A stretch of DNA of 10,306 nucleotides, from the IMG/VR virus record IMGVR_UViG_2541047900_000001. The stretch is one strand, 5' to 3'. Within the stretch, counting starts at the first letter, position 1; every line of letters starts with the position of its first letter. A program made the translations under genes and the position numbers. The notes beneath the pieces are model-generated. The model did not search any database. It was not told the origin of the DNA and worked only from the letters and a program-made list of their open reading frames with translations. Positions 1 to 10,306 of this stretch are shown piece by piece. The stretch comes from a virus. Lineage: Monodnaviria; Loebvirae; Hofneiviricota; Faserviricetes; Tubulavirales; Inoviridae.

Positions 1-14
1 ACATTATGCGCACC
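1..14 (-). other. Partial dif site (XerC arm plus first 3 bases of the central region), truncated by the window edge
   Basis: Bases 1-14 ACATTATGCGCACC are the exact reverse complement of GGTGCGCATAATGT, i.e. the XerC arm GGTGCGCATAA plus TGT of the central region of the E. coli-type 28-bp dif site. The rest of the site would lie left of the window. Confidence 0.75.
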
Positions 15-154
15 AATGGTAAGGATGGCAGAATCTGGCGGGAATCGTTGACACTGGCCGTCAACTGGCTACTATCGACAGTGATTCAAAATCATCCGTT
101 TCTCCAAACGAATCAGAATCAAATGTCTGTCAGCAGTAAGTGAACGGCCTGACC

Positions 155-403
155 TCACCAATCAGGCCTGTTCATCCAGTTAGTTGGTAAATCTGTACCT
201 GATACACGAGAATCAAACACCACTTCTTCAGTGCCATCACCATGATGCCGGATAATCTGGTAACCGGATTGCGGGTTCTGGCTCTCAGCTTCATAAGCAG
301 CCCGGAATGCTGGATCTTTGAGAAGCATCACTTTCAGCTCCTGATGTGTCATGAATTTTTCCATGATAAGCCCCGATGAATGCTGCCGCGCCGAATCAGC
401 CAT
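155..403 (-). CDS. Hypothetical small protein (82 aa) in the cargo position downstream of the secretin; start codon uncertain
   Basis: Intact ORF. No convincing Shine-Dalgarno at the annotated start, and internal Met codons (MEKFM..., MTHQELK...) are alternative starts. No family assigned. Confidence 0.4.
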   Translation of the reverse strand: MADSARQHSSGLIMEKFMTHQELKVMLLKDPAFRAAYEAESQNPQSGYQIIRHHGDGTEEVVFDSRVSGTDLPTNWMNRPDW

Positions 404-548
404 AACGCTGAAAATGGAAACTGTACGGCTTGGCCAACCCCGGACAGCAACAAAACAAGTTTTGTCACTGACCGGCGTTATCTTTCAAAACAGACAGTTA
501 ACGATTTTTTGTCTGGTGTTTATGCGTGAAATTTCGTGCGTACGAAAT

Positions 549-797
549 TCACCACCAATAAACAAACGGACGATGACTGACCGGAAAAGCAATGCCGTCA
601 GCATCATGACCACGCATTACCTGATTGAGAAGCCTTCTGACTTCACGACGCTCAGGCCTGGTCATCATCATATTGCGATACCAGGACGGCGATTTATCAA
701 ACCATCTGGCACAACTGGCAAAATGTGAACCTACACGACGATAAGACTTAAGGCGTCCACCGGGAAGTCGGTCACGCGCCTTATTTTTTACAGACAT
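549..797 (-). CDS. Hypothetical small basic protein (82 aa), cargo gene immediately downstream of the secretin
   Basis: ORF preceded on the minus strand by AGAGGA, 6 nt, ATG (strong Shine-Dalgarno). Arg/Lys-rich translation. No family recognised. Confidence 0.5.
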   Translation of the reverse strand: MSVKNKARDRLPGGRLKSYRRVGSHFASCARWFDKSPSWYRNMMMTRPERREVRRLLNQVMRGHDADGIAFPVSHRPFVYWW

Positions 798-885
798 AAT
801 AAATCCTCTAAGTAACTGAATACCTAGAAGATGTCGTACTGTTCATACCCCATAAAAGTTAACGCCATAATAAAAATCCATACAA

Positions 886-2130
886 TCAGTTCAGGTTGTC
901 CCGGAACAGTTCACCGCTCCTCGCGGCGCTGCGGGGCGTCGCCCTGCTCCGGTCAACCTTTCTGACCTGAAGCATCACCATAATATCAGTCTTGTTGCTT
1001 TCACTGGTACGGGAACCGAAGAAGCTCCAGCCGGAACTGGCCTTACTGTCTTTCTGTTCAGCAAGGCCACCAAGTAAAATAATATCACCATCTGCAAGGC
1101 TGACTTCGGTTGTTACATCACGCTTGATAAGGGTTGGCGAGTTATTGACGCCGGTTTCAGTGGTCACAAAGTTGGAAAGCTGCTGCTGAATCTTGAGATC
1201 CATTGTCCGACTTTTGATTGATGGCGTCACGTTAAACAAAACACCGCTGGAACGATATTCAACGGATTGCGTTGTCGTATTGTTATTCACCGTAACACTG
1301 CCCAGTACTGGCACATCAGAGCCGACTGAAAAAGACGCTGAGGCATTATTTTTTACCCGCAGTCGTGGCGCACTGACAACAGTAAAACGACTGTCGGTTT
1401 TCAGCAGATTGAAAATGGCATCAATGGAGCCGGTTCGAATATTGATAAAATTATCCAGTCCGGCAGCACCAACTGAAATATTGAATTTATCAGACAGAAT
1501 TTTAGCCGCTAAAAGAATGCCGGAGCCGTCAGACTGCGAGGTCTGAACCTCAAAAACATAACCAGAAACAACCACTTCATCACTCATCGTATCCAGCGAA
1601 GTGACCAGTGTTTTCAGGATGGCGATATCCTCTTTCGTACCATAATAAACCAGAATATCACCGGTTCGATTGATGTAGTTGCTTGCCCCTGATGAACCTT
1701 TTAGCGAATCGTCAGAAATCACGGCTCCACTGTTATTGAAGGAGCCTGAAACGTAGCCGCCAAGAATATCAGACAGGTAAGCAACAGAACGGTACTGAGG
1801 CGTATAAGTCCATGTATAACGTGGCTTAACCGGCTCTTTCGGCGTATAGGGCGCGATAAAATCAACACCCTTTTTCGTCCATATTCGAATGTTCATATTG
1901 CCAAGATAACGGGTTACAAATTCCCGTTCATCAATATCAGGTGTTAACCTGAATGTAATCATTCGTTCATCATTAACAAGCTGTGGATCTAGCATATACG
2001 GGACTTTAAGCACCTCACTGTAAATAAGAGAAATAGCCTCCGGTAGCTTGACTTTATTTAATTCAAGCTCTGACCCTGCGAAAGCACATGAAGAAAATAG
2101 TAGCGTTAATGCGAGTAAAATCTTTTTCAT
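886..2130 (-). CDS. Filamentous-phage pIV-type outer-membrane secretin
   Basis: 414 aa with N-terminal signal peptide MKKILLALTLLFSSCAFA. C-terminal half has the secretin-like pattern (VVSAPRL..., SVG..VP..., ILLGGL) resembling Ff gene IV protein. Its ATG overlaps the upstream gene's TAA by 1 nt (2130). Confidence 0.88.
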   Translation of the reverse strand: MKKILLALTLLFSSCAFAGSELELNKVKLPEAISLIYSEVLKVPYMLDPQLVNDERMITFRLTPDIDEREFVTRYLGNMNIRIWTKKGVDFIAPYTPKEPVKPRYTWTYTPQYRSVAYLSDILGGYVSGSFNNSGAVISDDSLKGSSGASNYINRTGDILVYYGTKEDIAILKTLVTSLDTMSDEVVVSGYVFEVQTSQSDGSGILLAAKILSDKFNISVGAAGLDNFINIRTGSIDAIFNLLKTDSRFTVVSAPRLRVKNNASASFSVGSDVPVLGSVTVNNNTTTQSVEYRSSGVLFNVTPSIKSRTMDLKIQQQLSNFVTTETGVNNSPTLIKRDVTTEVSLADGDIILLGGLAEQKDSKASSGWSFFGSRTSESNKTDIMVMLQVRKVDRSRATPRSAARSGELFRDNLN

Positions 2131-3155
2131 TATTTTTTCCCCGTATAAAGCGTCACACGCTCACCATCAATAATTCCGCTCATCAACATCCCTTTGTAAT
2201 TAAAACTGGATGCAGGAACGGCACGCAAAACACCGGCACCGTTAACAAGAATCACAAACGCCCTGCCTTCACTGGTCATTCTCCCTGATATACGCCACTC
2301 GGTTGAAAGTGGCGGTTCAGCTGGTTCTGAGGGAGTATCTGGTGCTGGAGTAGCAGCGGAAGAACGAAACATGGCCGCATCACGTACATCTGTTGTAGTC
2401 AAATCTGGCGAGGGATCGCTTCGGCCAAACGTGCTGAAAAATGAGTAAATCAGCCAGCCTGACCCGATAAACATCAATGGAAAAAGCACAAGAAAGAACC
2501 TGACTTTGCCAGAATTCCAGATGCTCTGGCGTTTATCTGTCTGCTTTTCATTACCGTTATTTCCTTCATAACTTTTGTAAAGTTCAAAAATATCAGGGTT
2601 ATATTTATTGCGATAACTGGTGACGAGGTTGCTTTTATAGATTTTGTGGCCTGAATATACGTCAATGCAATAATGATTATTCAGGCCCAACGCTTTCAGC
2701 TTGCGCATCCGGTAAGTTGTTTCTATTTTGTCTTTCAGAAAGCGAGCAATATTAGAAAGTGACTGATTTACAATAACCAAATCACAGCTAATACCCGTTT
2801 CAGGGTGCGTAAAATGACGATGTTCAGCAATAAATGATTTCTTCTCAGCCGTCATATCCTTATCGCTACCGAAGATTCGCCATGCTTCATCAATAACAAT
2901 TAAATCACCAAACTGGCAAAAGCTCCCTTCCCCACCTTTAAAAGGAAAGAAATCTGCTTTAAGCACATCATCATTATCCACAACAATAATTTCTCCCGTT
3001 GCATCAGGATAACGTTCGGTGATTTTATCTTTTTGTAAACCATAAATGTTCGTCACAACTCTCCGGCCGCTGGTAAATGCCGGAATAATGACATTGTAAA
3101 CGGCTTCATAACTTTTTCCTGAGCCGGGTATGCCAATATATGCAGAAATAGCCAT
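2130..3155 (-). CDS. pI / Zot-family phage assembly ATPase
   Basis: 341 aa; Walker A P-loop GIPGSGKS at residues 8-15; central hydrophobic helix (FFLVLFPLMFIGSGWLIYSFF); Pro/Ser/Thr-rich C-terminal region. Position directly upstream of the secretin as in Ff, CTX-phi (zot). Confidence 0.88.
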   Translation of the reverse strand: MAISAYIGIPGSGKSYEAVYNVIIPAFTSGRRVVTNIYGLQKDKITERYPDATGEIIVVDNDDVLKADFFPFKGGEGSFCQFGDLIVIDEAWRIFGSDKDMTAEKKSFIAEHRHFTHPETGISCDLVIVNQSLSNIARFLKDKIETTYRMRKLKALGLNNHYCIDVYSGHKIYKSNLVTSYRNKYNPDIFELYKSYEGNNGNEKQTDKRQSIWNSGKVRFFLVLFPLMFIGSGWLIYSFFSTFGRSDPSPDLTTTDVRDAAMFRSSAATPAPDTPSEPAEPPLSTEWRISGRMTSEGRAFVILVNGAGVLRAVPASSFNYKGMLMSGIIDGERVTLYTGKK

Positions 3156-3158
3156 AAC

Positions 3159-3446
3159 TCACCCTATAACAGGAATACGTCGAATAATAAAACGAGTAGC
3201 CATTGCGGAGATAATCATACTAATCCCCTGTGGTAATTTACTCAGGTTAATGAAGTACCAGAATCCGTCTGATAAATTGGCAAACAGCGATGAGAGATTG
3301 CTTGAATCTGGCAGTAACTCAACAAGGATTTCAACGAAGCCCTGGACTACAAAATACAGCGCAAAGAATACGACGAATTTAATAATCAATGACCGGAATA
3401 CAAAACCTAACAAAGTATTTAATGCACTAATCAGAATCCCAAACAT
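3159..3446 (-). CDS. pVI-like minor coat / membrane protein
   Basis: 95 aa, strongly hydrophobic; AAGGAG Shine-Dalgarno 7 nt upstream of ATG; lies between the pIII-like and pI genes as gene VI does in Ff phages. Confidence 0.6.
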   Translation of the reverse strand: MFGILISALNTLLGFVFRSLIIKFVVFFALYFVVQGFVEILVELLPDSSNLSSLFANLSDGFWYFINLSKLPQGISMIISAMATRFIIRRIPVIG

Positions 3447-3458
3447 AGTTGCACTCCT

Positions 3459-5171
3459 TTAGGCACTCAGAATAATACGGAGCGCAACAAATCCCCATAT
3501 AATCAGAAATATGGTTTCTACGGCGCTTCTGTTCTGCTCAATTAACGGACAATGGGAGTCAATTCTGTACTGGTGATTAAACACGCTGAATTCAACAACG
3601 GGGCAGGATGCTGAACGAGAGCCGATGTTAAATTCGTTTGTAAAAGGCAACAAGTTAATAATTGGCGTTAAAATATCTCTTGCCGTTGGCGTTTCTTCAA
3701 GCTCAGGCTCTTTTACACCGGGATCTTCTCCCAAATCTATATTGCCATTATTTCCAGTGTCAGATCCTGAGTTGTTATTAATGGTAATATCAATATTGAC
3801 GTCAGCCCCTGCACTGTCAGATACAGGTGAAAGCATATCTAATAACGTTGGAGATAGCCTAAGTTCCGACATCGCAGAAGTTACTTCAGCCGGTGAAACC
3901 TCTTTAAACGGTAAGCCGTTATAATCGGCATTAACGGCAGCTTCAGACCACAGCTCGTTAATCATGTCGGCAAGAAGTGCTGGCGATACACTAACACTAT
4001 CAAGATACTCCAGATAATCAATCATGGACTCAATATTTCCGGCCTCCAGTACTTCCGTCATGGCTTTATATTTGGTATTGGTCCAGATAGTAAGCTCACT
4101 CTTTTCATCAATATCTTTTGCGGTGTAATCCTCTTTTTCAGGAACGGCGCAAATCGTCGAATATCCACCATTTGACTGATTAGTCGTTTTACAAGGCGTG
4201 TTGTGATACTGATATTGCTTTCCTGCTGTTAAATAAGCAACGCTGTAATACATGGGAAGCCCTGCTACATTTTCATACATGGGAATACCTGCGGGAAATG
4301 AAGATGCGGCCGGGTTGCTATACAAGTGTGTAATCTCAGGTATTTCATAAAATGAGGAAGGATAAGTAAACTTATAATTCTGTTCAGTAAAGGATACATC
4401 TCCATTACTGTTGACAACTTTATTCGTCACAGTGCGTTCAAAATTCGTTAGTGTTTCAGTATAAGTACGCGAGTTATAGTCATTAAGATAATTTCTGGCA
4501 ATTTCAGTTGGATTATCACCATAGTAATAAATTAGCTCTTTCGAATCCTGATAATAATAAAGTGCATTATCTGGCGTGGAATATCCTGTTTCAACACCTA
4601 CAACTGGAGAACCCGCATCCACATTATTACGACTAACATGAAGGATTACCGGACTTAATTCCTGTGGTTCAAAATTAACGGTTATCGTCTTACTTTCACC
4701 ACTTTGACCACTGTACGTTACTTCATATAAATTATCGGAAATCTTTTTACCGTTAGTCATTACCATTACCGAGCCGTCAGATGAACTCAAAGAAGACGGA
4801 ACAAAAGATGATACAGCAGCAGCAATACCCGCCCACGTTGCAACACCGCTCATTTTGTATGATGAGGCAGCAGGCAAGTATTCGGCAGCATTAGCCGCAG
4901 CGCGGCCAACAAAAACACGGGTTGCTGTAAGCTGTGATGCCGTATAAATCGCATCATTGGCAGCAAAGCGACGAACAAGCACCCGGCCAACGACTTTAGG
5001 AATAACAGCCCGCGCAGCCACTGCTGCAATTGCTGGTACAAATGAATATGAATATCGGGGAAAGGAAACCCAGAGAAAGGAAAAAATAAAGGAATAAACC
5101 GTCAGCCTCTTAGCCCAAGAATAACGACATAAGCTGAGACGATCCCCCATAAAAGGGAACCCAATTTCCAT
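3459..5171 (-). CDS. pIII-like adsorption (receptor-binding) minor coat protein
   Basis: 570 aa; GGAG Shine-Dalgarno 7 nt upstream of the ATG at 5171; Gly/Ser/Asn-rich linker (NNNSGSDTGNNGN); C-terminal hydrophobic anchor (TIFLIIWGFVALRIIL); position after the major coat gene. The exact N-terminus is uncertain. Confidence 0.65.
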   Translation of the reverse strand: MEIGFPFMGDRLSLCRYSWAKRLTVYSFIFSFLWVSFPRYSYSFVPAIAAVAARAVIPKVVGRVLVRRFAANDAIYTASQLTATRVFVGRAAANAAEYLPAASSYKMSGVATWAGIAAAVSSFVPSSLSSSDGSVMVMTNGKKISDNLYEVTYSGQSGESKTITVNFEPQELSPVILHVSRNNVDAGSPVVGVETGYSTPDNALYYYQDSKELIYYYGDNPTEIARNYLNDYNSRTYTETLTNFERTVTNKVVNSNGDVSFTEQNYKFTYPSSFYEIPEITHLYSNPAASSFPAGIPMYENVAGLPMYYSVAYLTAGKQYQYHNTPCKTTNQSNGGYSTICAVPEKEDYTAKDIDEKSELTIWTNTKYKAMTEVLEAGNIESMIDYLEYLDSVSVSPALLADMINELWSEAAVNADYNGLPFKEVSPAEVTSAMSELRLSPTLLDMLSPVSDSAGADVNIDITINNNSGSDTGNNGNIDLGEDPGVKEPELEETPTARDILTPIINLLPFTNEFNIGSRSASCPVVEFSVFNHQYRIDSHCPLIEQNRSAVETIFLIIWGFVALRIILSA

Positions 5172-5195
5172 AATTCAATCTCCATAATAACCTCA

Positions 5196-5222
5196 AGTAA
5201 AACGGGCGATATTGCATCGCCC
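5196..5222 (-). terminator. Putative rho-independent terminator between the major coat and pIII-like genes
   Basis: Inverted repeat GGGCGAT (5204-5210) / ATCGCCC (5216-5222) with 5-nt loop, followed on the minus strand by GTTTTAC. Ff phages carry a terminator at the same place after gene VIII. Confidence 0.5.
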
Positions 5223-5235
5223 ATGAATAATGAAT

Positions 5236-5469
5236 TTATGCGGATTTAACGGTACGCAATACCCAGCGAACGCCAGCGACACCGGCATAAAGTGTTACCA
5301 GTGAAGCAGCAACGGCCATAATCGCAACCAGAACTGTACTGAAATCAATGCTGTTCGTCAGCGGCGATAAATCAACACCACTTGATGCCGCTCCTTCTGC
5401 AGCGAAAGTCGCGCCAGAAACAGCCATTAATGCAGGTACAGCCAGAAAATTAACGTTTTTTTTAAACAT
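5236..5469 (-). CDS. pVIII-type major coat protein precursor
   Basis: 77 aa; signal peptide MFKKNVNFLAVPALMAVSGATFA then a ~54-aa mature peptide with acidic N-terminus, hydrophobic core and basic C-terminus (RWVLRTVKSA). GGAGA Shine-Dalgarno 7 nt upstream. Confidence 0.85.
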   Translation of the reverse strand: MFKKNVNFLAVPALMAVSGATFAAEGAASSGVDLSPLTNSIDFSTVLVAIMAVAASLVTLYAGVAGVRWVLRTVKSA

Positions 5470-5503
5470 AACTCTATCTCCATTACATTTTAAAGGTTCG
5501 CAT

Positions 5504-5755
5504 TCAAGCAGTACGAACCATCTTTATTACCTGTCCCACACCTACAGAAAAAAGCCAGAGCAGCAGGACAGAGCCAAAACCTAATGTCCAGTAATTTCCC
5601 ATTGCAGAATAATCAATTTGATGAAATGGTTCAGAACGTACCATTATTGCCTGACATTCTTTTGCATTGTTCGCATTACATAAATAACCTTCAATACGGT
5701 AACCATTTTCAGGAATATGATTATCAAACTGAATATCGAAACCTGATGTATCCAT
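5504..5755 (-). CDS. Small protein with C-terminal transmembrane helix; possible minor coat/assembly protein (pVII/pIX analogue)
   Basis: 83 aa; C-terminal hydrophobic segment LGFGSVLLLWLFSVGVGQVI; start 2 nt after the upstream gene's stop (TGATTATG), suggesting translational coupling; sits between the ssDNA-binding and major coat genes. Confidence 0.45.
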   Translation of the reverse strand: MDTSGFDIQFDNHIPENGYRIEGYLCNANNAKECQAIMVRSEPFHQIDYSAMGNYWTLGFGSVLLLWLFSVGVGQVIKMVRTA

Positions 5756-5757
5756 AA

Positions 5758-6075
5758 TCAGCCTTTTATTTCAGTAATGCCGCCATCTGATGAAATGTTA
5801 TAAGTTACTCCTTCCCTCCCCTCCATTGACCAGACGCGAACATATACAGGTATCTGGACTAACTTACCGATAAAATTATTTGCCTGATTCATTACACCGG
5901 CATTAACAAGAGCCTGAGATACACGAATAATAATCTGGTCTTGCTTAGTGCCGCCAAAACCATCAGGAATCTCTAAGCCAACACCAATTTCATTATAGTA
6001 TCCCTGACCATTGACCTTATTACGCTGGCGAGCACCAAGCATTTTACCTTTTACAAAAAGACCATAATTAGACAT
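5758..6075 (-). CDS. Probable ssDNA-binding protein (gene V analogue)
   Basis: 105 aa; AAGGAG Shine-Dalgarno; immediately downstream of the replication gene, where gene V lies in inoviruses. Assigned mainly by synteny and size. Confidence 0.55.
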   Translation of the reverse strand: MSNYGLFVKGKMLGARQRNKVNGQGYYNEIGVGLEIPDGFGGTKQDQIIIRVSQALVNAGVMNQANNFIGKLVQIPVYVRVWSMEGREGVTYNISSDGGITEIKG

Positions 6076-6086
6076 ATCACTCTCCT

Positions 6087-7139
6087 TTAATGCCAGTTAC
6101 TGGCATGTGAAATACGGTTATAATCGAAAATTAAACCTTTCTCATAAACCCATGATGGAATTTTGGCTGGTTTGGCTTCAAGAGTACGAACCAACGGAAC
6201 AACGTTATTAGAATCCGGTGACTCACAATAAAAGTTAATATCTATTCCGAAAGAAAGTAATTCTTTACGGTGTCGGTAGAATGTAGGTTTCGGTAACATC
6301 TCTTTCATGTTCGCGCCCTGCTTCCACAATAAATATGTAGACTGTATTTTTCTTGGGAGATTAATTATTTTTTCATCAGTTAATATAGTATTTTGATTCA
6401 TTTCTATTCTCCCTACATAGTCAGAGAATAATTTATTGGGCGTCTCAATATTCCAGCTATTACCAAGCGTAAGATTCAAATCAATTAATTCAGTTGTTCT
6501 TAATGTTAATTCAATGCGTAATTTATCTTTTGACCAGTCCAGTAAACCAGCTTTAACGAATTCGTCTGCCATCTGGTGCCCTTTTTTGCCAGATGTATGC
6601 TCATCATATTTTGAATAAAATTTCAGGCTCCAACGACGGGAGTTTTTCCCTAAGTAAACAGTGCCACCTTTACCACAGGCGCGACCGTGGCGAGTTTTAG
6701 CTTTAAATTCTGCGGCATATAACCATGCGCGGACATTTTCTAATGTTGACAATGAATACATGTAATTGATATCGATGCGCGAGATCTTAAATTGCCCTTC
6801 CATGACCTGCCGATAGGATGGTAGATCATGAGGAATATGCAGTAATGCCAATATTCTGGCGTAAGCTGTTAACACCAACCCTTGCAAATCGTCGGAACCG
6901 ATAACAGAGTGACCTTGCAAAAACTTTGATGGATTACCGTCAATGTAGAGATGTGTTGCCCGACCTTCACCATCAGATCCAACAGACCTTACTTTCATTG
7001 TGGACTCATGCGAACCGCGAACGGTCAACCGTTTTACTGTTTCCCACTCCACTGCACCGTCAGCATCGACGCTGACGACACTACCAGCCGGTAACGGTCG
7101 GTGTGTGCAAGGCAGGATTCCGGTAAACCAGTCGATCAT
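6087..7139 (-). CDS. Rolling-circle replication initiation protein (gene II / RstA-like)
   Basis: 350 aa; first gene of the minus-strand module, divergent from the HTH repressor as rstA is from rstR in CTX-phi. Size and position typical of inovirus replication initiators. Confidence 0.8.
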   Translation of the reverse strand: MIDWFTGILPCTHRPLPAGSVVSVDADGAVEWETVKRLTVRGSHESTMKVRSVGSDGEGRATHLYIDGNPSKFLQGHSVIGSDDLQGLVLTAYARILALLHIPHDLPSYRQVMEGQFKISRIDINYMYSLSTLENVRAWLYAAEFKAKTRHGRACGKGGTVYLGKNSRRWSLKFYSKYDEHTSGKKGHQMADEFVKAGLLDWSKDKLRIELTLRTTELIDLNLTLGNSWNIETPNKLFSDYVGRIEMNQNTILTDEKIINLPRKIQSTYLLWKQGANMKEMLPKPTFYRHRKELLSFGIDINFYCESPDSNNVVPLVRTLEAKPAKIPSWVYEKGLIFDYNRISHASNWH

Positions 7140-7277
7140 AAGTAGTCACACCCATCAAAATATGTGTCAATAGTCATTTGTGAGCAGATTGAATGGTCAC
7201 AATGTAATATGCTCAGATCTGACAGTCAATACATTTGCAATGTTTAAATTGTCAAAAATGAGCATCAAATCTAACTA
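7140..7277. promoter_or_regulatory. Divergent control region between replication gene and repressor (copy 1); probable promoters, operators and possibly the origin
   Basis: 138-bp AT-rich spacer between divergent genes. Contains a perfect 10-bp palindrome TCAGATCTGA (7213..7222), an inverted repeat TGTGA...TCACA (7180..7200) and three TGTCAA-like motifs (7165-7171, 7224-7230, 7250-7256). Exact -35/-10 elements could not be assigned. Confidence 0.55.
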
Positions 7278-7712
7278 TTGATGAAGTTATGGCGGACAAA
7301 CAGAGAGCAGAACGGTATCAAAAAGGTAATTCTGGAACACTCGACTTATGAAGAACTGGCCGAGAAGACTGGCATTAGCGTGAGTACGCTGGTCAGGATA
7401 GCGTCCGGCAAAACTGAACCTAAATTCAGTGACATCATTCAGATAGCTAAAATTACGGGTGCAGACTTAAACACCTTAGCTTATGGCTATGCTCTTGATG
7501 TTAAAGAAGAAGCTACCGAGCGGAAGCTAATCACTTCTGCGGATGGATATACTGATGAAGAAACCACTAACGCACATAATTTCATCGTGTGGAACATCAG
7601 GACACTGGAAAAACAAGATATTCTGGCACTCGCAAGGCAGGTTTCTGCCTTAAGTTCATACACTTACAGTACTAAAATGTTTATGAAAAAAGCGGTGTCT
7701 GGAGAAGAGTAA
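7278..7712 (+). CDS. HTH (XRE/Cro-C1-type) repressor, copy 1 with altered 5' end; possibly non-functional
   Basis: 144 aa, identical to copy 2 from IKKVILEH onward. Lacks the 46-bp segment carrying copy 2's Shine-Dalgarno and start, begins at TTG/ATG without a recognisable ribosome-binding site, and an extra G changes the first ~12 residues. Confidence 0.45.
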   Translation: MMKLWRTNREQNGIKKVILEHSTYEELAEKTGISVSTLVRIASGKTEPKFSDIIQIAKITGADLNTLAYGYALDVKEEATERKLITSADGYTDEETTNAHNFIVWNIRTLEKQDILALARQVSALSSYTYSTKMFMKKAVSGEE

Positions 7713-7726
7713 AAGGATTAACAGTC

Positions 7727-7879
7727 TCAGGAATGAGACAAACGTGCAGTATTACCGCGAACGGTCAACCGTTTTACTGTTTCCCACTCCACTGCACCGT
7801 CAGCATCGACGCTGACGACACTACCAGCCGGTAACGGTCGGTGTGTGCAAGGCAGGATTCCGGTAAACCAGTCGATCAT
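7727..7879 (-). pseudogene. Truncated duplicate of the replication gene 5' end (42 native codons plus 8 out-of-frame codons)
   Basis: 7754..7879 matches 7014..7139 (rep codons 1-42); reading continues into the reverse complement of the repressor copy 1 3' region and stops after 8 codons. Confidence 0.8.
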
Positions 7880-8050
7880 AAGTAGTCACACCCATCAAAA
7901 TATGTGTCAATAGTCATTTGTGAGCAGATTGAATGGTCACAATGTAATATGCTCAGATCTGACAGTCAATACATTTGCAATGTTTAAATTGTCAAAAATG
8001 AGCATCAAATCTAACTATTGAAAAACCACTGTTAAGATGGAGCCAAGTAG
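7880..8050. promoter_or_regulatory. Divergent control region, copy 2, with extra 46-bp segment providing the repressor ribosome-binding site and start
   Basis: Same motifs as copy 1 (palindrome TCAGATCTGA at 7953..7962), plus 8021..8066 containing GGAG about 9 nt upstream of the ATG at 8051. Confidence 0.55.
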
Positions 8051-8497
8051 ATGGGCAACAATGAGCATGAAGTTATGGCGGACAAACAGAGAGCAGAACG
8101 TATCAAAAAGGTAATTCTGGAACACTCGACTTATGAAGAACTGGCCGAGAAGACTGGCATTAGCGTGAGTACGCTGGTCAGGATAGCGTCCGGCAAAACT
8201 GAACCTAAATTCAGTGACATCATTCAGATAGCTAAAATTACGGGTGCAGACTTAAACACCTTAGCTTATGGCTATGCTCTTGATGTTAAAGAAGAAGCTA
8301 CCGAGCGGAAGCTAATCACTTCTGCGGATGGATATACTGATGAAGAAACCACTAACGCACATAATTTCATCGTGTGGAACATCAGGACACTGGAAAAACA
8401 AGATATTCTGGCACTCGCAAGGCAGGTTTCTGCCTTAAGTTCATACACTTACAGTACTAAAATGTTTATGAAAAAAGCGGTGTCTGGAGAAGAGTAA
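8051..8497 (+). CDS. HTH (XRE/Cro-C1-type) transcriptional repressor, intact copy
   Basis: 148 aa; helix-turn-helix segment STYEELAEKTGISVSTLVRIASGKTEPKFSDIIQIAKITGADL matches the XRE pattern; GGAG Shine-Dalgarno; divergent from the replication gene as rstR is in CTX-phi. Confidence 0.85.
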   Translation: MGNNEHEVMADKQRAERIKKVILEHSTYEELAEKTGISVSTLVRIASGKTEPKFSDIIQIAKITGADLNTLAYGYALDVKEEATERKLITSADGYTDEETTNAHNFIVWNIRTLEKQDILALARQVSALSSYTYSTKMFMKKAVSGEE

Positions 8498-8525
8498 AAG
8501 GATTAACAGTCTCAGGAATGAGACA

Positions 8526-8554
8526 AACGTGCAGTATTACCAACACTGCACGTT
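8526..8554 (+). terminator. Putative rho-independent terminator of the repressor gene
   Basis: Perfect 10-bp inverted repeat AACGTGCAGT (8526-8535) / ACTGCACGTT (8545-8554), 9-nt loop, then CTTTATTGTG. Only the left half is present after copy 1 (7741-7750). Confidence 0.6.
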
Positions 8555-8593
8555 CTTTATTGTGCGAATTTTGAACAATGAAAAAGGATCAAA

Positions 8594-9016
8594 ATGATGA
8601 GTAGAAATAACGAAACAAGCGGCGTTGAATTGGTTGTCGTGGGCGTATTTGCTTTCTGTCTGGCAGTTGTTGCCTGGTTAATGAAAACTTTCGATGTTGA
8701 ATGGCAAACAGCACTGGAAACTGCGCCTGGCCTGATAGTCTGGTTGCTTGTTGTCGGTGCGGGGATCTTTTTCGGGATCAAAATGGAAACAGGTCTTGTT
8801 CGCTGGGGTGCCCCACTGGCGATCGCCCTTCTGATTCCGGTATTCAAACCAATTCTTAAGGAAGCTGCCGGAGTACGTGAAATGGGTGGGTTGGTTTTCG
8901 ATGATATGGTTTCGTGGTACGGAACTGGCTGGGGAATGTCTCTGATGTTTTTTGGAATTCTTATCGTCGGATACGGTCTGCTTTATTGGTGGCACCGAAG
9001 AAATTCATATTATTGA
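8594..9016 (+). CDS. Small integral membrane protein (about 4 predicted transmembrane helices), function unknown
   Basis: 140 aa; AGGA Shine-Dalgarno 5 nt upstream of the ATG; four hydrophobic segments (VVVGVFAFCLAVVAWLM, LIVWLLVVGAGIFFGI, APLAIALLIPVF, MSLMFFGILIVGYGLLYWW). Antisense ORFs 8557..8847 and 8678..8995 judged to be shadows. Confidence 0.7.
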   Translation: MMSRNNETSGVELVVVGVFAFCLAVVAWLMKTFDVEWQTALETAPGLIVWLLVVGAGIFFGIKMETGLVRWGAPLAIALLIPVFKPILKEAAGVREMGGLVFDDMVSWYGTGWGMSLMFFGILIVGYGLLYWWHRRNSYY

Positions 9017-9018
9017 TA

Positions 9019-9049
9019 TAATATTACCCTAGGTTAACTAGGGTAATAT
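9019..9049. promoter_or_regulatory. Near-perfect 31-bp palindrome (13-bp arms, 5-nt spacer): terminator or protein-binding site
   Basis: AATATTACCCTAG (9019-9031), GTTAA, CTAGGGTAATATT (9037-9049); lies 3 nt after the stop of the membrane-protein gene, at the transition into AT-rich DNA. Confidence 0.55.
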
Positions 9050-9117
9050 TCAAATACTAAATTTTTACATTTTATCTGACCATCTTTGATCAGTTAAAAC
9101 ACTGGATTTTAAGTAAA

Positions 9118-10221
9118 ATGAGAAAAAAGATGCCGGACTTGATTACTGATACATTGAAAGTAGTTACTTCTTTTTTTGTGGCATTAGTCCTCAATAAGTT
9201 TTTATCTATATTTAGGAAAAGACAACTTTACTTATCCTGTTGGAACTCCTTGAGTAAAACCTCAATATCTGACAATGCAATAGTAATAAATGCATCAGTA
9301 TTTAATAAAGGTAAGGATAAAGAAAAAAATGTAGAAATAAAAGTCCCAAACGGTATGTCTTGTACTGTAATTGCAAGTGATCATGATGCAACTACCGAAG
9401 GTTCTTTTGTGAAGATAGATAGAATATTAGCAAATAAAAAAATATCCATGGTGCTCTTGATTGAAGGAACAAGAGTTCTTGATAAAAGTACCATGCCTTC
9501 CATAAGATCAGAAGATACTGACGGGAAAACATACCTTTCAAAAGACTCAGTGCCACCGAGTGCAGGTTCTTTTATTTTAGGCGGTGCTATTTTTGCTGCA
9601 TTTTTCAGTTATATGGTCATCAGTATCCAAACAGAAGACAACCCTCTCGCGGGCCCATTGAAAGCATATAACTACATGATTTATAACAATATGTACAATT
9701 CTGGACTTTCGATTAATCCTATAGGTAATGGACTGATAACTGAAAATTACAATCTAAGAGCGAATGAATACCCTATTGAAATAATAGATGCCAAGATAGA
9801 AAAAAATCAAATAATGTTCAAATTTAGAATAATTAATAAAACATCAGAAGCACTGAAAGTTTCAGGCGGATGGAGAATATATAAAAACTTTCAATATATT
9901 TCCGAACATGTTGATACATTTGATTATAAAGATGAAAAGAAAAGAGAAGAAGAAGAAATAAGGGTGTATAAGAAATACAATGTGGAATTTGTTAATGATA
10001 ATGGATATCTTATGGAAAAACCGAAAGAAAGGGTTGAAGTTCCTGCAAATTCAGTTGGCTATATTATAATAAACAGAAAATACTCTCCAAGCATTACTTA
10101 TAATGACCTAAACATCGAGTTTAACTTTAGTGGTGGTTCAGGTGAAATATACCAAGAAGCAGATATGCTTTTTACAGCTAAGAATTCTAATATAAGCAGT
10201 ACTATATTAGACAAGAAATAA
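9118..10221 (+). CDS. AT-rich hypothetical membrane protein with two predicted transmembrane helices and large Lys/Asn/Ile/Tyr-rich domains; function unknown
   Basis: 367 aa uninterrupted ORF in visibly AT-rich DNA, unlike the rest of the window. Hydrophobic helices near the N-terminus (VVTSFFVALVLNKFLSIF) and mid-protein (FILGGAIFAAFFSYMVISI). Weak Shine-Dalgarno; a second in-frame ATG 4 codons downstream is an alternative start. Confidence 0.7.
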   Translation: MRKKMPDLITDTLKVVTSFFVALVLNKFLSIFRKRQLYLSCWNSLSKTSISDNAIVINASVFNKGKDKEKNVEIKVPNGMSCTVIASDHDATTEGSFVKIDRILANKKISMVLLIEGTRVLDKSTMPSIRSEDTDGKTYLSKDSVPPSAGSFILGGAIFAAFFSYMVISIQTEDNPLAGPLKAYNYMIYNNMYNSGLSINPIGNGLITENYNLRANEYPIEIIDAKIEKNQIMFKFRIINKTSEALKVSGGWRIYKNFQYISEHVDTFDYKDEKKREEEEIRVYKKYNVEFVNDNGYLMEKPKERVEVPANSVGYIIINRKYSPSITYNDLNIEFNFSGGSGEIYQEADMLFTAKNSNISSTILDKK

Positions 10222-10227
10222 TTAATT

Positions 10228-10254
10228 GGTTCGCACAATGACGTTATGCTAAAG
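10228..10254 (+). other. Degenerate dif-like sequence (candidate Xer recombination site) with a 5-bp central region
   Basis: GGTTCGCACAA TGACG TTATGCTAAAG versus dif GGTGCGCATAA TGTATA TTATGTTAAAT: 9/11 matches in each arm, central region one base short. Orientation is inverted relative to the dif fragment at 1-14. Confidence 0.4.
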
Positions 10255-10290
10255 AGGCCGCTGCGGAGGCCATTTTCGCAGCGGCCTTTT
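10255..10290 (+). terminator. Putative rho-independent terminator downstream of the AT-rich gene
   Basis: GC-rich inverted repeat AGGCCGCTGCG (10255-10265) / CGCAGCGGCCT (10277-10287) followed by TTT; flanked by a further inverted pair CGTTATG / CATAACG. Confidence 0.55.
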
Positions 10291-10306
10291 CAACATAACG
10301 AGTCGC

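Follow-up and report, generated by a model that had tools for sequence, protein, structure and literature searches.

The stretch of DNA analysed here, the 10,306-nucleotide inovirus record IMGVR_UViG_2541047900_000001 (hereafter the window), is very probably a filamentous phage of the CUS-1/Ypf-phi type that integrates at the bacterial dif site in the manner of CTX-phi; window positions 4-14 are the XerC-binding arm of its own attachment site, attP1, and positions 1-3 the TGT overlap that attP1 shares with dif. Window positions 1-14 read ACATTATGCGCACC, and their reverse complement, GGTGCGCATAATGT, is composed of GGTGCGCATAA followed by TGT. On the minus strand, the match to the canonical dif of Escherichia coli K-12, GGTGCGCATAATGTATATTATGTTAAAT (reference sequence from Carnoy & Roten, PMC2731167), extends over 14 of 14 positions, and about 6e-5 to 8e-5 exact matches of a 14-mer are expected by chance in 2 x 10306 positions. 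When three or fewer mismatches are allowed, further matches occur in the window only at 2804-2817 and 10228-10241, and the latter belongs to the inverted partner site, attP2, as its XerC arm.

The original prediction, made from the letters alone, had described positions 1-14 as an exact dif XerC arm plus the start of the central region on the minus strand, cut by the window edge. The match itself stands (14/14; about 6e-5 by chance), and so does the cut. The 11-nt spacer of attP1, TGTGCGACTCG, and the dif central region, TGTATA, are the same through TGT and then diverge (TGT-GCGACTCG versus TGT-ATA), and the window edge cuts the site exactly at the end of the identity between attP1 and the chromosomal dif. 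However, the 14 bases are not simply host dif; they belong to the phage's own XerC arm and represent half of attP1. The same prediction covered the first 14 nucleotides only and missed the remainder of the attachment (att) site at 10228-10306, including the second, inverted dif-like site. The parts of the complete attachment region are as follows.

1-3, minus strand: TGT, central-region nucleotides 1-3, common to attP1 and dif; the attP1/dif identity stops after TGT
4-14, minus strand: XerC-binding arm GGTGCGCATAA of phage attP1, 11/11 exact versus the dif XerC arm
10228-10254, plus strand: attP2, the inverted partner, GGTTCGCACAA-TGACG-TTATGCTAAAG, arms 9/11 and 9/11 versus dif, 5-nt spacer
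10255-10287, unstranded: apical GC-rich stem-loop of 33 nt between attP1 and attP2, with compensatory changes in 4 of its pairs
10288-10298, minus strand: XerD-like arm of attP1, TTATGTTGAAA, 9/11 versus dif
10299-10306, minus strand: the other 8 nt (GCGACTCG) of attP1's 11-nt spacer, mostly unpaired bulge of the folded site

The integrated state can be read in close relatives. The window is 100% identical to the chromosome of E. coli ESBLEC_MG32 (NZ_CM132638.1; L001) over 1-7281 and 7754-10306. In this strain, reading a further 14 bases upstream of window position 1 yields, on the minus strand, a full and perfect dif of 28 bp, GGTGCGCATAA-TGTATA-TTATGTTAAAT, and ACATTATGCGCACC recurs directly after the equivalent of window 10306, followed by host DNA, which leaves a 14-bp direct repeat at both ends. 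The right-end junction is a hybrid site that consists of the host XerC arm and the phage remainder, with an 11-bp spacer. A synthetic empty site, in which the host flanks were joined via a single dif, has matches in no fewer than 211 E. coli genomes; the best of these are 100% identical across all 830 bp in one piece. An ISNCY pseudogene lies to the right of the L001 prophage, and the empty sites carry it too. No integrase was found within 10 kb on either side of this prophage. A prophage with its own integrase and a tRNA or other att site, as in Pf-like inoviruses, was considered and rejected, as no integrase was found among the 20 window ORFs scanned against Pfam or within 10 kb in the L001 flanks. 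The leftward extension and the comparison of both junctions with prophage-free relatives, which had been proposed as checks of the prediction, thus returned a complete dif, both junctions and the empty sites; the two observations named as grounds for abandoning it, upstream sequence that fails to complete a dif and an integrase with its own att site just outside, were not encountered in the relatives.

This arrangement recurs beyond a single strain. Among ten other places that encode the cargo protein of the window (see below), the left phage end completes a perfect dif in eight, and the remaining two are one internal tandem copy and one truncated remnant. In L001 and in those eight places, the arm at 4-14 adjoins host TGTATA-TTATGTTAAAT; in a free episome (L002) and at tandem junctions, it adjoins the right end of the phage. 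As these junctions read, the arm becomes, once integrated, part of the reconstituted dif as its XerC arm. Of 5426 complete E. coli genomes, 96 hold 80% or more of window 1-3000, at a median of two places each; relatives are chromosomal in 210 of 211 places, and many E. coli matches begin exactly at the first dif base on varied chromosomal backgrounds.

The free episome is a 9565-bp circle from E. coli TUM14759 (NZ_CP128883.1; L002), in which window 10306 is joined directly to position 1; the window is therefore exactly one phage unit. This record is annotated as the 'plasmid' pMTY14759_untypable1, although it is the phage replicative form. Alongside the episome, the chromosome of the same strain (L010) holds at least three head-to-tail copies in the order dif-phage-attP-phage-attP-phage. 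The L010 copies bear many frameshift flags, which are probably long-read errors in the repeat. Further tandem pairs occur in CP088855 and in a Klebsiella plasmid that is described below.

The episome raises the question of whether the window itself is a circular replicative form, in which the 14 bases complete attP1 by wrapping around to position 10306. Joining 10306 to 1 reproduces the attP1 of NZ_CP128883.1 exactly, Ypf-phi is often extrachromosomal (PMC4266046), and the window contains no host DNA. However, an arbitrary linearisation would cut exactly at the limit of attP/dif identity in only about 1 of 10^4 cases, boundaries of the form 'direct repeat plus insert' are those of an insertion delimited against an empty site, and the relatives are mostly chromosomal, as counted above. 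We consider the episomal form unlikely, albeit the best of the alternatives, and the identity of the 14 bases is the same in either case.

The second line of evidence for CTX-phi-type integration is the anatomy of the complete att region. On the viral-sense strand, which is the window minus strand, attP1 reads GGTGCGCATAA-TGTGCGACTCG-TTATGTTGAAA, in which the XerC arm is exact, the spacer is 11 nt long and the XerD arm matches at 9 of 11 positions. This strand is also the coding strand of the replication (rep) and morphogenesis genes. The two sites are inverted and lie 33 nt apart, and neither spacer (11 or 5) is a legal central region of 6-8 bp. At an unchanged distance, attP2 is also present in Yersinia pestis, Brenneria, Photorhabdus and approximately 30 inovirus contigs of IMG/VR. 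The viral-sense strand is predicted to fold into a forked hairpin with a minimum free energy of -35 kcal/mol (z = -6.8), in which an asymmetric bulge separates the stem of the XerC arm from that of the XerD arm and a GC stem forms the apex. The same architecture is predicted in Y. pestis, Brenneria, Photorhabdus and a contig labelled 'Candidatus Nanosynbacter' (L007), as well as in approximately 30 of 44 distinct sites from inovirus-sized IMG/VR contigs. A first alignment of six sequences (A1) was too invariant, with all compensatory changes coming from Brenneria, and an alignment of 31 sequences (A2) was used instead. In A2, pairing at the 36 consensus pairs is preserved in 98.7% of cells, compared with 27-49% when the partners are slid, and compensatory double changes occur in 7 pairs, compared with 2.6 +/- 0.8 in shuffles (0/500). 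Columns 20-26 of the bulge are hypervariable, and the terminal CG is invariant and paired. The apical stem-loop may also serve as a terminator for the cargo genes.

These observations bear on a route such as that of VGJ-phi, in which the duplex replicative form would recombine reversibly through attP1 alone by XerC exchange and attP2 would be irrelevant. Such a route would give junction products identical to those seen, a TGT overlap on the XerC side also marks VGJ-type sites (PMC4246890), and episomes and empty sites both exist. However, 11 bp separate the arms of attP1, whereas the dif-like site of VGJ-phi is a single one of 29 bp, and Xer recombination is stated not to work on an extended central region (PMC4246890). 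Moreover, this route leaves unexplained the pairing of attP2 with attP1, which is conserved with compensatory changes in 31 phages. We regard it as improbable.

The third line of evidence comes from natural markers that position the crossover. Plasmid p1 of Klebsiella pneumoniae 23620 (NZ_CP132684.1) contains a tandem pair of the window's phage at 99.4% identity, with sites at L011:5987-6014, L011:15425-15518 and L012:3871-3964. The left flank reads GGTGCGCATAA-TGTACG-TTATGTTAAAT, and the right flank reads AGTGCGCTTAA-TGTACGACTCG-TTATGTTGAAA. pK2044 (NC_006625.1) carries the empty plasmid site predicted from these flanks, AGTGCGCTTAA-TGTACG-TTATGTTAAAT, with 100% identity across 601 bp, and matches that cover 80% or more of the query occur in 328 plasmids. 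The XerC arms have been swapped reciprocally: the arm of the plasmid is at the hybrid junction, and the arm of the phage is in the reconstituted site. In two further loci (L074:11203 and L076:11203), the hybrid arms are GATGCGCATAA and AATGCGCATAA, respectively, the reconstituted dif carries GGTGCGCATAA, and both loci carry the attP1 variant of the window. According to the markers in L074 and L076, the top strands crossed over somewhere from arm position 3 to central nucleotide 3. This interval includes the XerC cleavage point and excludes that of XerD. Y. pestis is alike in this respect: its hybrid carries GGTGCACATAA, and GGTGCGCATAA is found internally. That the hybrid arm comes from the host is demonstrated, at the level of sequence, in the plasmid; in L074, L076 and Y. 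pestis, we infer it. The working dif of the host would then bear a phage-derived XerC arm, and the phage would overwrite the dif polymorphism of its host. The native XerC arm of Y. pestis was sought in the table of Carnoy & Roten (PMC2731167); however, strain CO92 carries Ypf-phi, and the entry is probably a reconstituted site and uninformative.

The same markers bear on a TLC-phi-type route, in which XerD exchange would come first, activated by a XafT-like factor of the phage, and XerC would complete the reaction. [quoted passage not shown] However, no DUF3653/XafT-type Pfam match was obtained among the open reading frames (ORFs) scanned, homology to dif lies on the XerC side only (TGT), the crossover in L074 and L076 is upstream of central nucleotide 4 and away from XerD cleavage, and the lineage is listed under the CTX type (PMC4246890). 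This route is very improbable. A coincidental match, or a host dif beside a prophage that was integrated otherwise (by an integrase encoded just outside or by homologous recombination), is the least credible reading of all: only 14 bases are visible in the window and secondary array copies could come from homologous recombination (PMC4266046), yet the chance expectation is about 6e-5, the free episome carries the same arm, junctions are precise and empty sites exist at two Xer sites, the arm markers at the plasmid site are reciprocal, and no integrase lies within 10 kb.

According to the CTX-phi-type scheme that we favour, the packaged (+) single-stranded DNA (ssDNA), which equals the window minus strand, would fold the attP1/attP2 pair into the forked hairpin and thereby present duplex XerC and XerD arms around an asymmetric bulge. 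The host XerCD recombinases would synapse this hairpin with the chromosomal dif, and XerC would swap a single strand pair where the XerC arm meets the central region, with the exchange stabilised by the shared TGT. Replication would turn the pseudo-Holliday junction so formed into a prophage. At the secretin-proximal end, the sequences show the product to be an intact dif made of the phage XerC arm, the host central region and the host XerD arm; at the cargo end, they show a hybrid site with an 11-bp spacer, which should be non-recombinogenic. With an intact dif at one end and such a hybrid at the other, the chromosome would keep one working dif, and the intact dif at the left end does look functional. 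Because the duplex attP sites lack a legal 6-8-bp spacer, integration should be irreversible, and new phage genomes should then arise when rolling-circle replication runs across tandem copies. The window comprises one unit only; arrays are seen in its relatives and would serve there as the template. In the integrated form, host ATTTAACATAATAT is expected directly 5' of window position 1, and in the episome, the wrap-around sequence is expected there. Site anatomy and junctions point to dependence on both XerC and XerD of the host. Catalysis by XerC only, the ssDNA route, irreversibility and rolling-circle production from arrays are steps that we infer.

Two features expected of an IMEX are present, namely precise insertion at an XerCD target with the empty site in relatives and no recombinase of its own. 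In addition, several features of the CTX-phi type are found: an inverted pair of sites with illegal spacers, a predicted hairpin, homology on the XerC side only, a dif at one end and a hybrid at the other, and arrays in relatives. Several points weigh against this interpretation. The XerC-dependent ssDNA route is described as 'proposed' for this enterobacterial lineage (PMC4266046), and the scheme given here is drawn from sequence. A superinfecting Ypf-phi inserted between resident copies at an imperfect site (Chouikha et al., as related in PMC4266046), which the classical model does not predict. The episome and the empty sites alone do not show irreversibility. Gene orientation, read in analogy to Ff and CTX-phi, is the ground for taking the window minus strand as the packaged one. 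The XerD-arm stem holds two G-T-type pairs and a terminal mismatch. The IMG/VR set was ascertained with a pattern that fixes part of attP1, and two inverted sites with the Xer consensus would pair partly without selection for a hairpin; however, pairs that covary are also seen beyond the arms and within the apical stem. Finally, the window contains a unique internal duplication (described below) that is found nowhere else searched.

The lineage of the element is clear. Its replication initiator is 100% identical to the copy in Y. pestis NCTC5923, and window 1-7756 is 99.1% identical in DNA to that locus; therefore, the element belongs to the CUS-1/Ypf-phi lineage, and the lineage that the original prediction named is substantiated over 7.8 kb. 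Ypf-phi and CUS-1 are listed as related members of the CTX-phi-type IMEXs (PMC4246890). Integration at dif by this lineage is already known, having been described since 2002-2007; the lineage itself has been on record for two decades and is present in approximately 2% of complete E. coli genomes. A megablast search of the whole window against INPHARED (50,697 deposited phage records) returned no match, and the lineage appears to be present in databases only as unannotated prophage or 'plasmid' sequence.

CUS-1 (CUS-phi, from E. coli O18:K1:H7) shares the host species and the dif location with the window, and over 7.1 kb its core is reported to match that of Ypf-phi at approximately 99% identity (Gonzalez et al. 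2002, as quoted in PMC4266046 and PMC7307601). In both CUS-1 and the window, an accessory region of variable content lies between the repressor and the att site; the window cargo (phrog_4174, phrog_17621) may or may not be that of CUS-1. The window differs from CUS-1 by the internal duplication of 0.74 kb. For Ypf-phi, an intact dif rebuilt at the 3' end, arrays of 2-4 copies, an inverted XerC/XerD pair and an episomal form have been described (Derbise & Carniel 2014, PMC4266046). The window has the same gene order and the same attP1/attP2 pair with spacers of 11 and 5, and its lineage shares the tandem arrays, the intact dif at the 3' end and the episomal forms. However, the attP1 spacer is TGTACGACTCG in Ypf-phi and TGTGCGACTCG in the window, so that the overlap with dif is 4 versus 3 nucleotides. 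In addition, YPO2271/2272 of Ypf-phi are replaced by other cargo in the window, because the Y. pestis match stops at window 8577.

In CTX-phi, attP1 and attP2 have central regions of 12 bp and 5-7 bp, are inverted and unusable as duplex, and fold into attP(+) in the (+) ssDNA (Das 2014, PMC4246890). Specificity is set by the bases beside the XerC arm, XerC performs the sole strand exchange, the junction is resolved through replication, the integration cannot be reversed, and tandem prophages yield phage by rolling-circle replication (PMC4246890). The att anatomy of the window matches the scheme described for CTX-phi and Ypf-phi point for point. CTX-phi and the window each carry an inverted pair of dif-like sites whose spacers are illegal (12 and 5-7 versus 11 and 5), and CTX-phi shares with the window lineage an overlap on the XerC side only, structural genes that read toward the reconstituted dif, a divergent repressor and arrays. 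The two differ in that no DNA similarity was detected (no megablast match in the phage collection), the att sites are 33 nt apart in the window versus 90 in CTX-phi, and the window cargo lies mainly between the att site and the repressor and not only at the position of ctxAB. The mechanism of CTX-phi is textbook knowledge, and that of the window lineage is a proposed one. VGJ-phi and TLC-phi are also integrase-less users of XerCD and dif; however, the former has a single duplex attP of 29 bp and the latter begins with XerD and XafT, and neither fits the window anatomy. The UP-phi901 group (Lineavirus-like, Enterobacterales) has the same hosts, integrates in tandem at dif and has a dif repeat of approximately 15 nt (PMC7307601). 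Genes II and V of UP-phi are more than 85% identical to those of Ypf-phi, and the rest is IKe/I2-2-like with less than 20% identity (PMC7307601). Membership in this group was rejected because the window core is Ypf-phi-like throughout and UP-phi shares only genes II and V with Ypf-phi.

All large minus-strand ORFs of the window are inovirus genes, encoding a secretin, Zot/pI, DUF2523, a protein at the pIII position, the coat protein, G5P and the G2P Rep, and the plus strand carries a divergent helix-turn-helix (HTH) repressor and two cargo ORFs. The features other than the att region are as follows.

155-403, minus strand: small ORF (RefSeq 155-352, WP_001298440.1), neighbour of the dif end; phrog_6642, 1e-53; no Pfam match
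549-797, minus strand: small ORF WP_001399975.1; no Pfam family
886-2130, minus strand: pIV-type secretin; PF00263, 1e-24
2130-3155, minus strand: pI/Zot assembly ATPase; PF05707, 2e-26
3159-3446, minus strand: DUF2523 minor coat protein; PF10734, 1e-20
3459-5171, minus strand: large virion/adsorption protein at the pIII position; phrog_3942, 5e-253
5236-5469, minus strand: major coat protein; phrog_2186 virion structural protein, 6e-29; weak PF05356 match
5504-5755, minus strand: small membrane protein; phrog_3679; RefSeq annotation
5758-6075, minus strand: ssDNA-binding protein G5P; PF17426, 1e-52
6087-7139, minus strand: rolling-circle replication initiator G2P; PF05144 1e-73, PF05155 4e-34
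7014-8541 (7014-7756 + 7754-8541), unstranded: internal tandem duplication that spans the 5' end of rep, the HTH gene and the intergenic region between the two
8051-8497, plus strand: HTH repressor, RstR-like by position and orientation; PF01381; compare YPO2273 in PMC4266046
8594-10221, plus strand: variable cargo slot beside attP2, encoding proteins of 140 and 367 amino acids (aa); phrog_4174, phrog_17621

This inventory agrees with the original prediction of a filamentous prophage, and the absence of an integrase or transposase, which that prediction had also asserted, is borne out by the lack of such a Pfam match among the 20 window ORFs scanned (0/20). The DUF2523 protein would be pVI-like by position. 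The product of 3459-5171 is probably the equivalent of PuvA of CUS-1, as the literature on puvA suggests (PMC4266046). The ORF at 155-403 occupies the position held by ctxAB in CTX-phi (comparison from PMC4266046).

The units of the internal duplication are approximately 0.74-0.79 kb in length, with an ACC microhomology at the junction, and a 45-bp deletion (TGA microhomology) in the first copy removes the start of the HTH repressor. The junction was not found in one piece in complete E. coli genomes, nor was it found in IMG/VR, JGI metagenome contigs, PLSDB or the ten cargo-protein places. The duplication may be a real rearrangement of the control and origin region or an assembly artefact. 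Approximately 135 bp of the HTH gene (region of window 7304-8224) also occur on plasmids of Escherichia, Salmonella and other genera at 92-93% identity; the matches comprise 442 PLSDB records, the majority of which are typed as conjugative. This distribution suggests that a repressor module is common to these phages and plasmids.

The GC content of the cargo is 0.30-0.32 over window 9001-10000. Beyond a negligible match to JetB (E = 0.004), neither the cargo ORFs nor the two small ORFs (155-403 and 549-797) had a match in Pfam or PADLOC. In the assembly collection, 727 blocks list the 367-aa protein. Homology in other genomes returns only 5-9 bp before attP2, and different cargo (e.g., a DUF6953 protein) is found upstream; therefore, attP2 is a sharp boundary of the cargo.

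Members of this phage family are linked to fitness and virulence in extraintestinal pathogenic E. coli and in Y. pestis, and correct boundaries, the tandem state and the variable cargo are therefore useful for genome annotation. The present analysis delimits the prophage to the base and supplies the full att region, including attP2 and the hairpin at 10228-10306. In relatives, the chromosome retains one intact dif, and the natural markers support a XerC-side crossover in a lineage whose mechanism is still 'proposed'. The insertion in the Klebsiella plasmid hints at a wider target range. It is possible, and we suggest this only tentatively, that the CUS-1/Ypf-phi attP hairpin targets sites beyond the chromosomal dif, with the dimer-resolution-type Xer site of a pK2044/pLVPK-type K. 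pneumoniae virulence plasmid (IncFIB/IncHI1B) as a natural capture; IMEX phages could then ride plasmids between species, and the cargo slot on the attP2 side could shuttle accessory or defence genes. No published report of Xer-site capture on a plasmid was found in a literature search that was far from exhaustive. The capture of a virulence-plasmid Xer site, the cargo slot abutting attP2 and the unique internal duplication are of modest side interest.

Two contigs from metagenome-assembled genomes (MAGs) encode enterobacterial-type inovirus genes. One is labelled 'Aerococcus sp.' (L005) and has a dif-like double site, and the other is the 'Candidatus Nanosynbacter' contig (L007), which has a canonical E. 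coli-type dif; both are probably mis-binned. To the right of the E. coli ESBLEC_MG32 prophage (L001:22873-24290), a decayed att copy comprises attP2, the GC hairpin and the attP1 XerD arm, after which it is truncated. This copy lies 2 bp past a SIR2-family gene (PADLOC PDC-S25, 2e-82), which fills the same slot as the 367-aa cargo gene of the window. The arrangement suggests an older IMEX remnant with defence-like cargo and successive insertions at the L001 dif.

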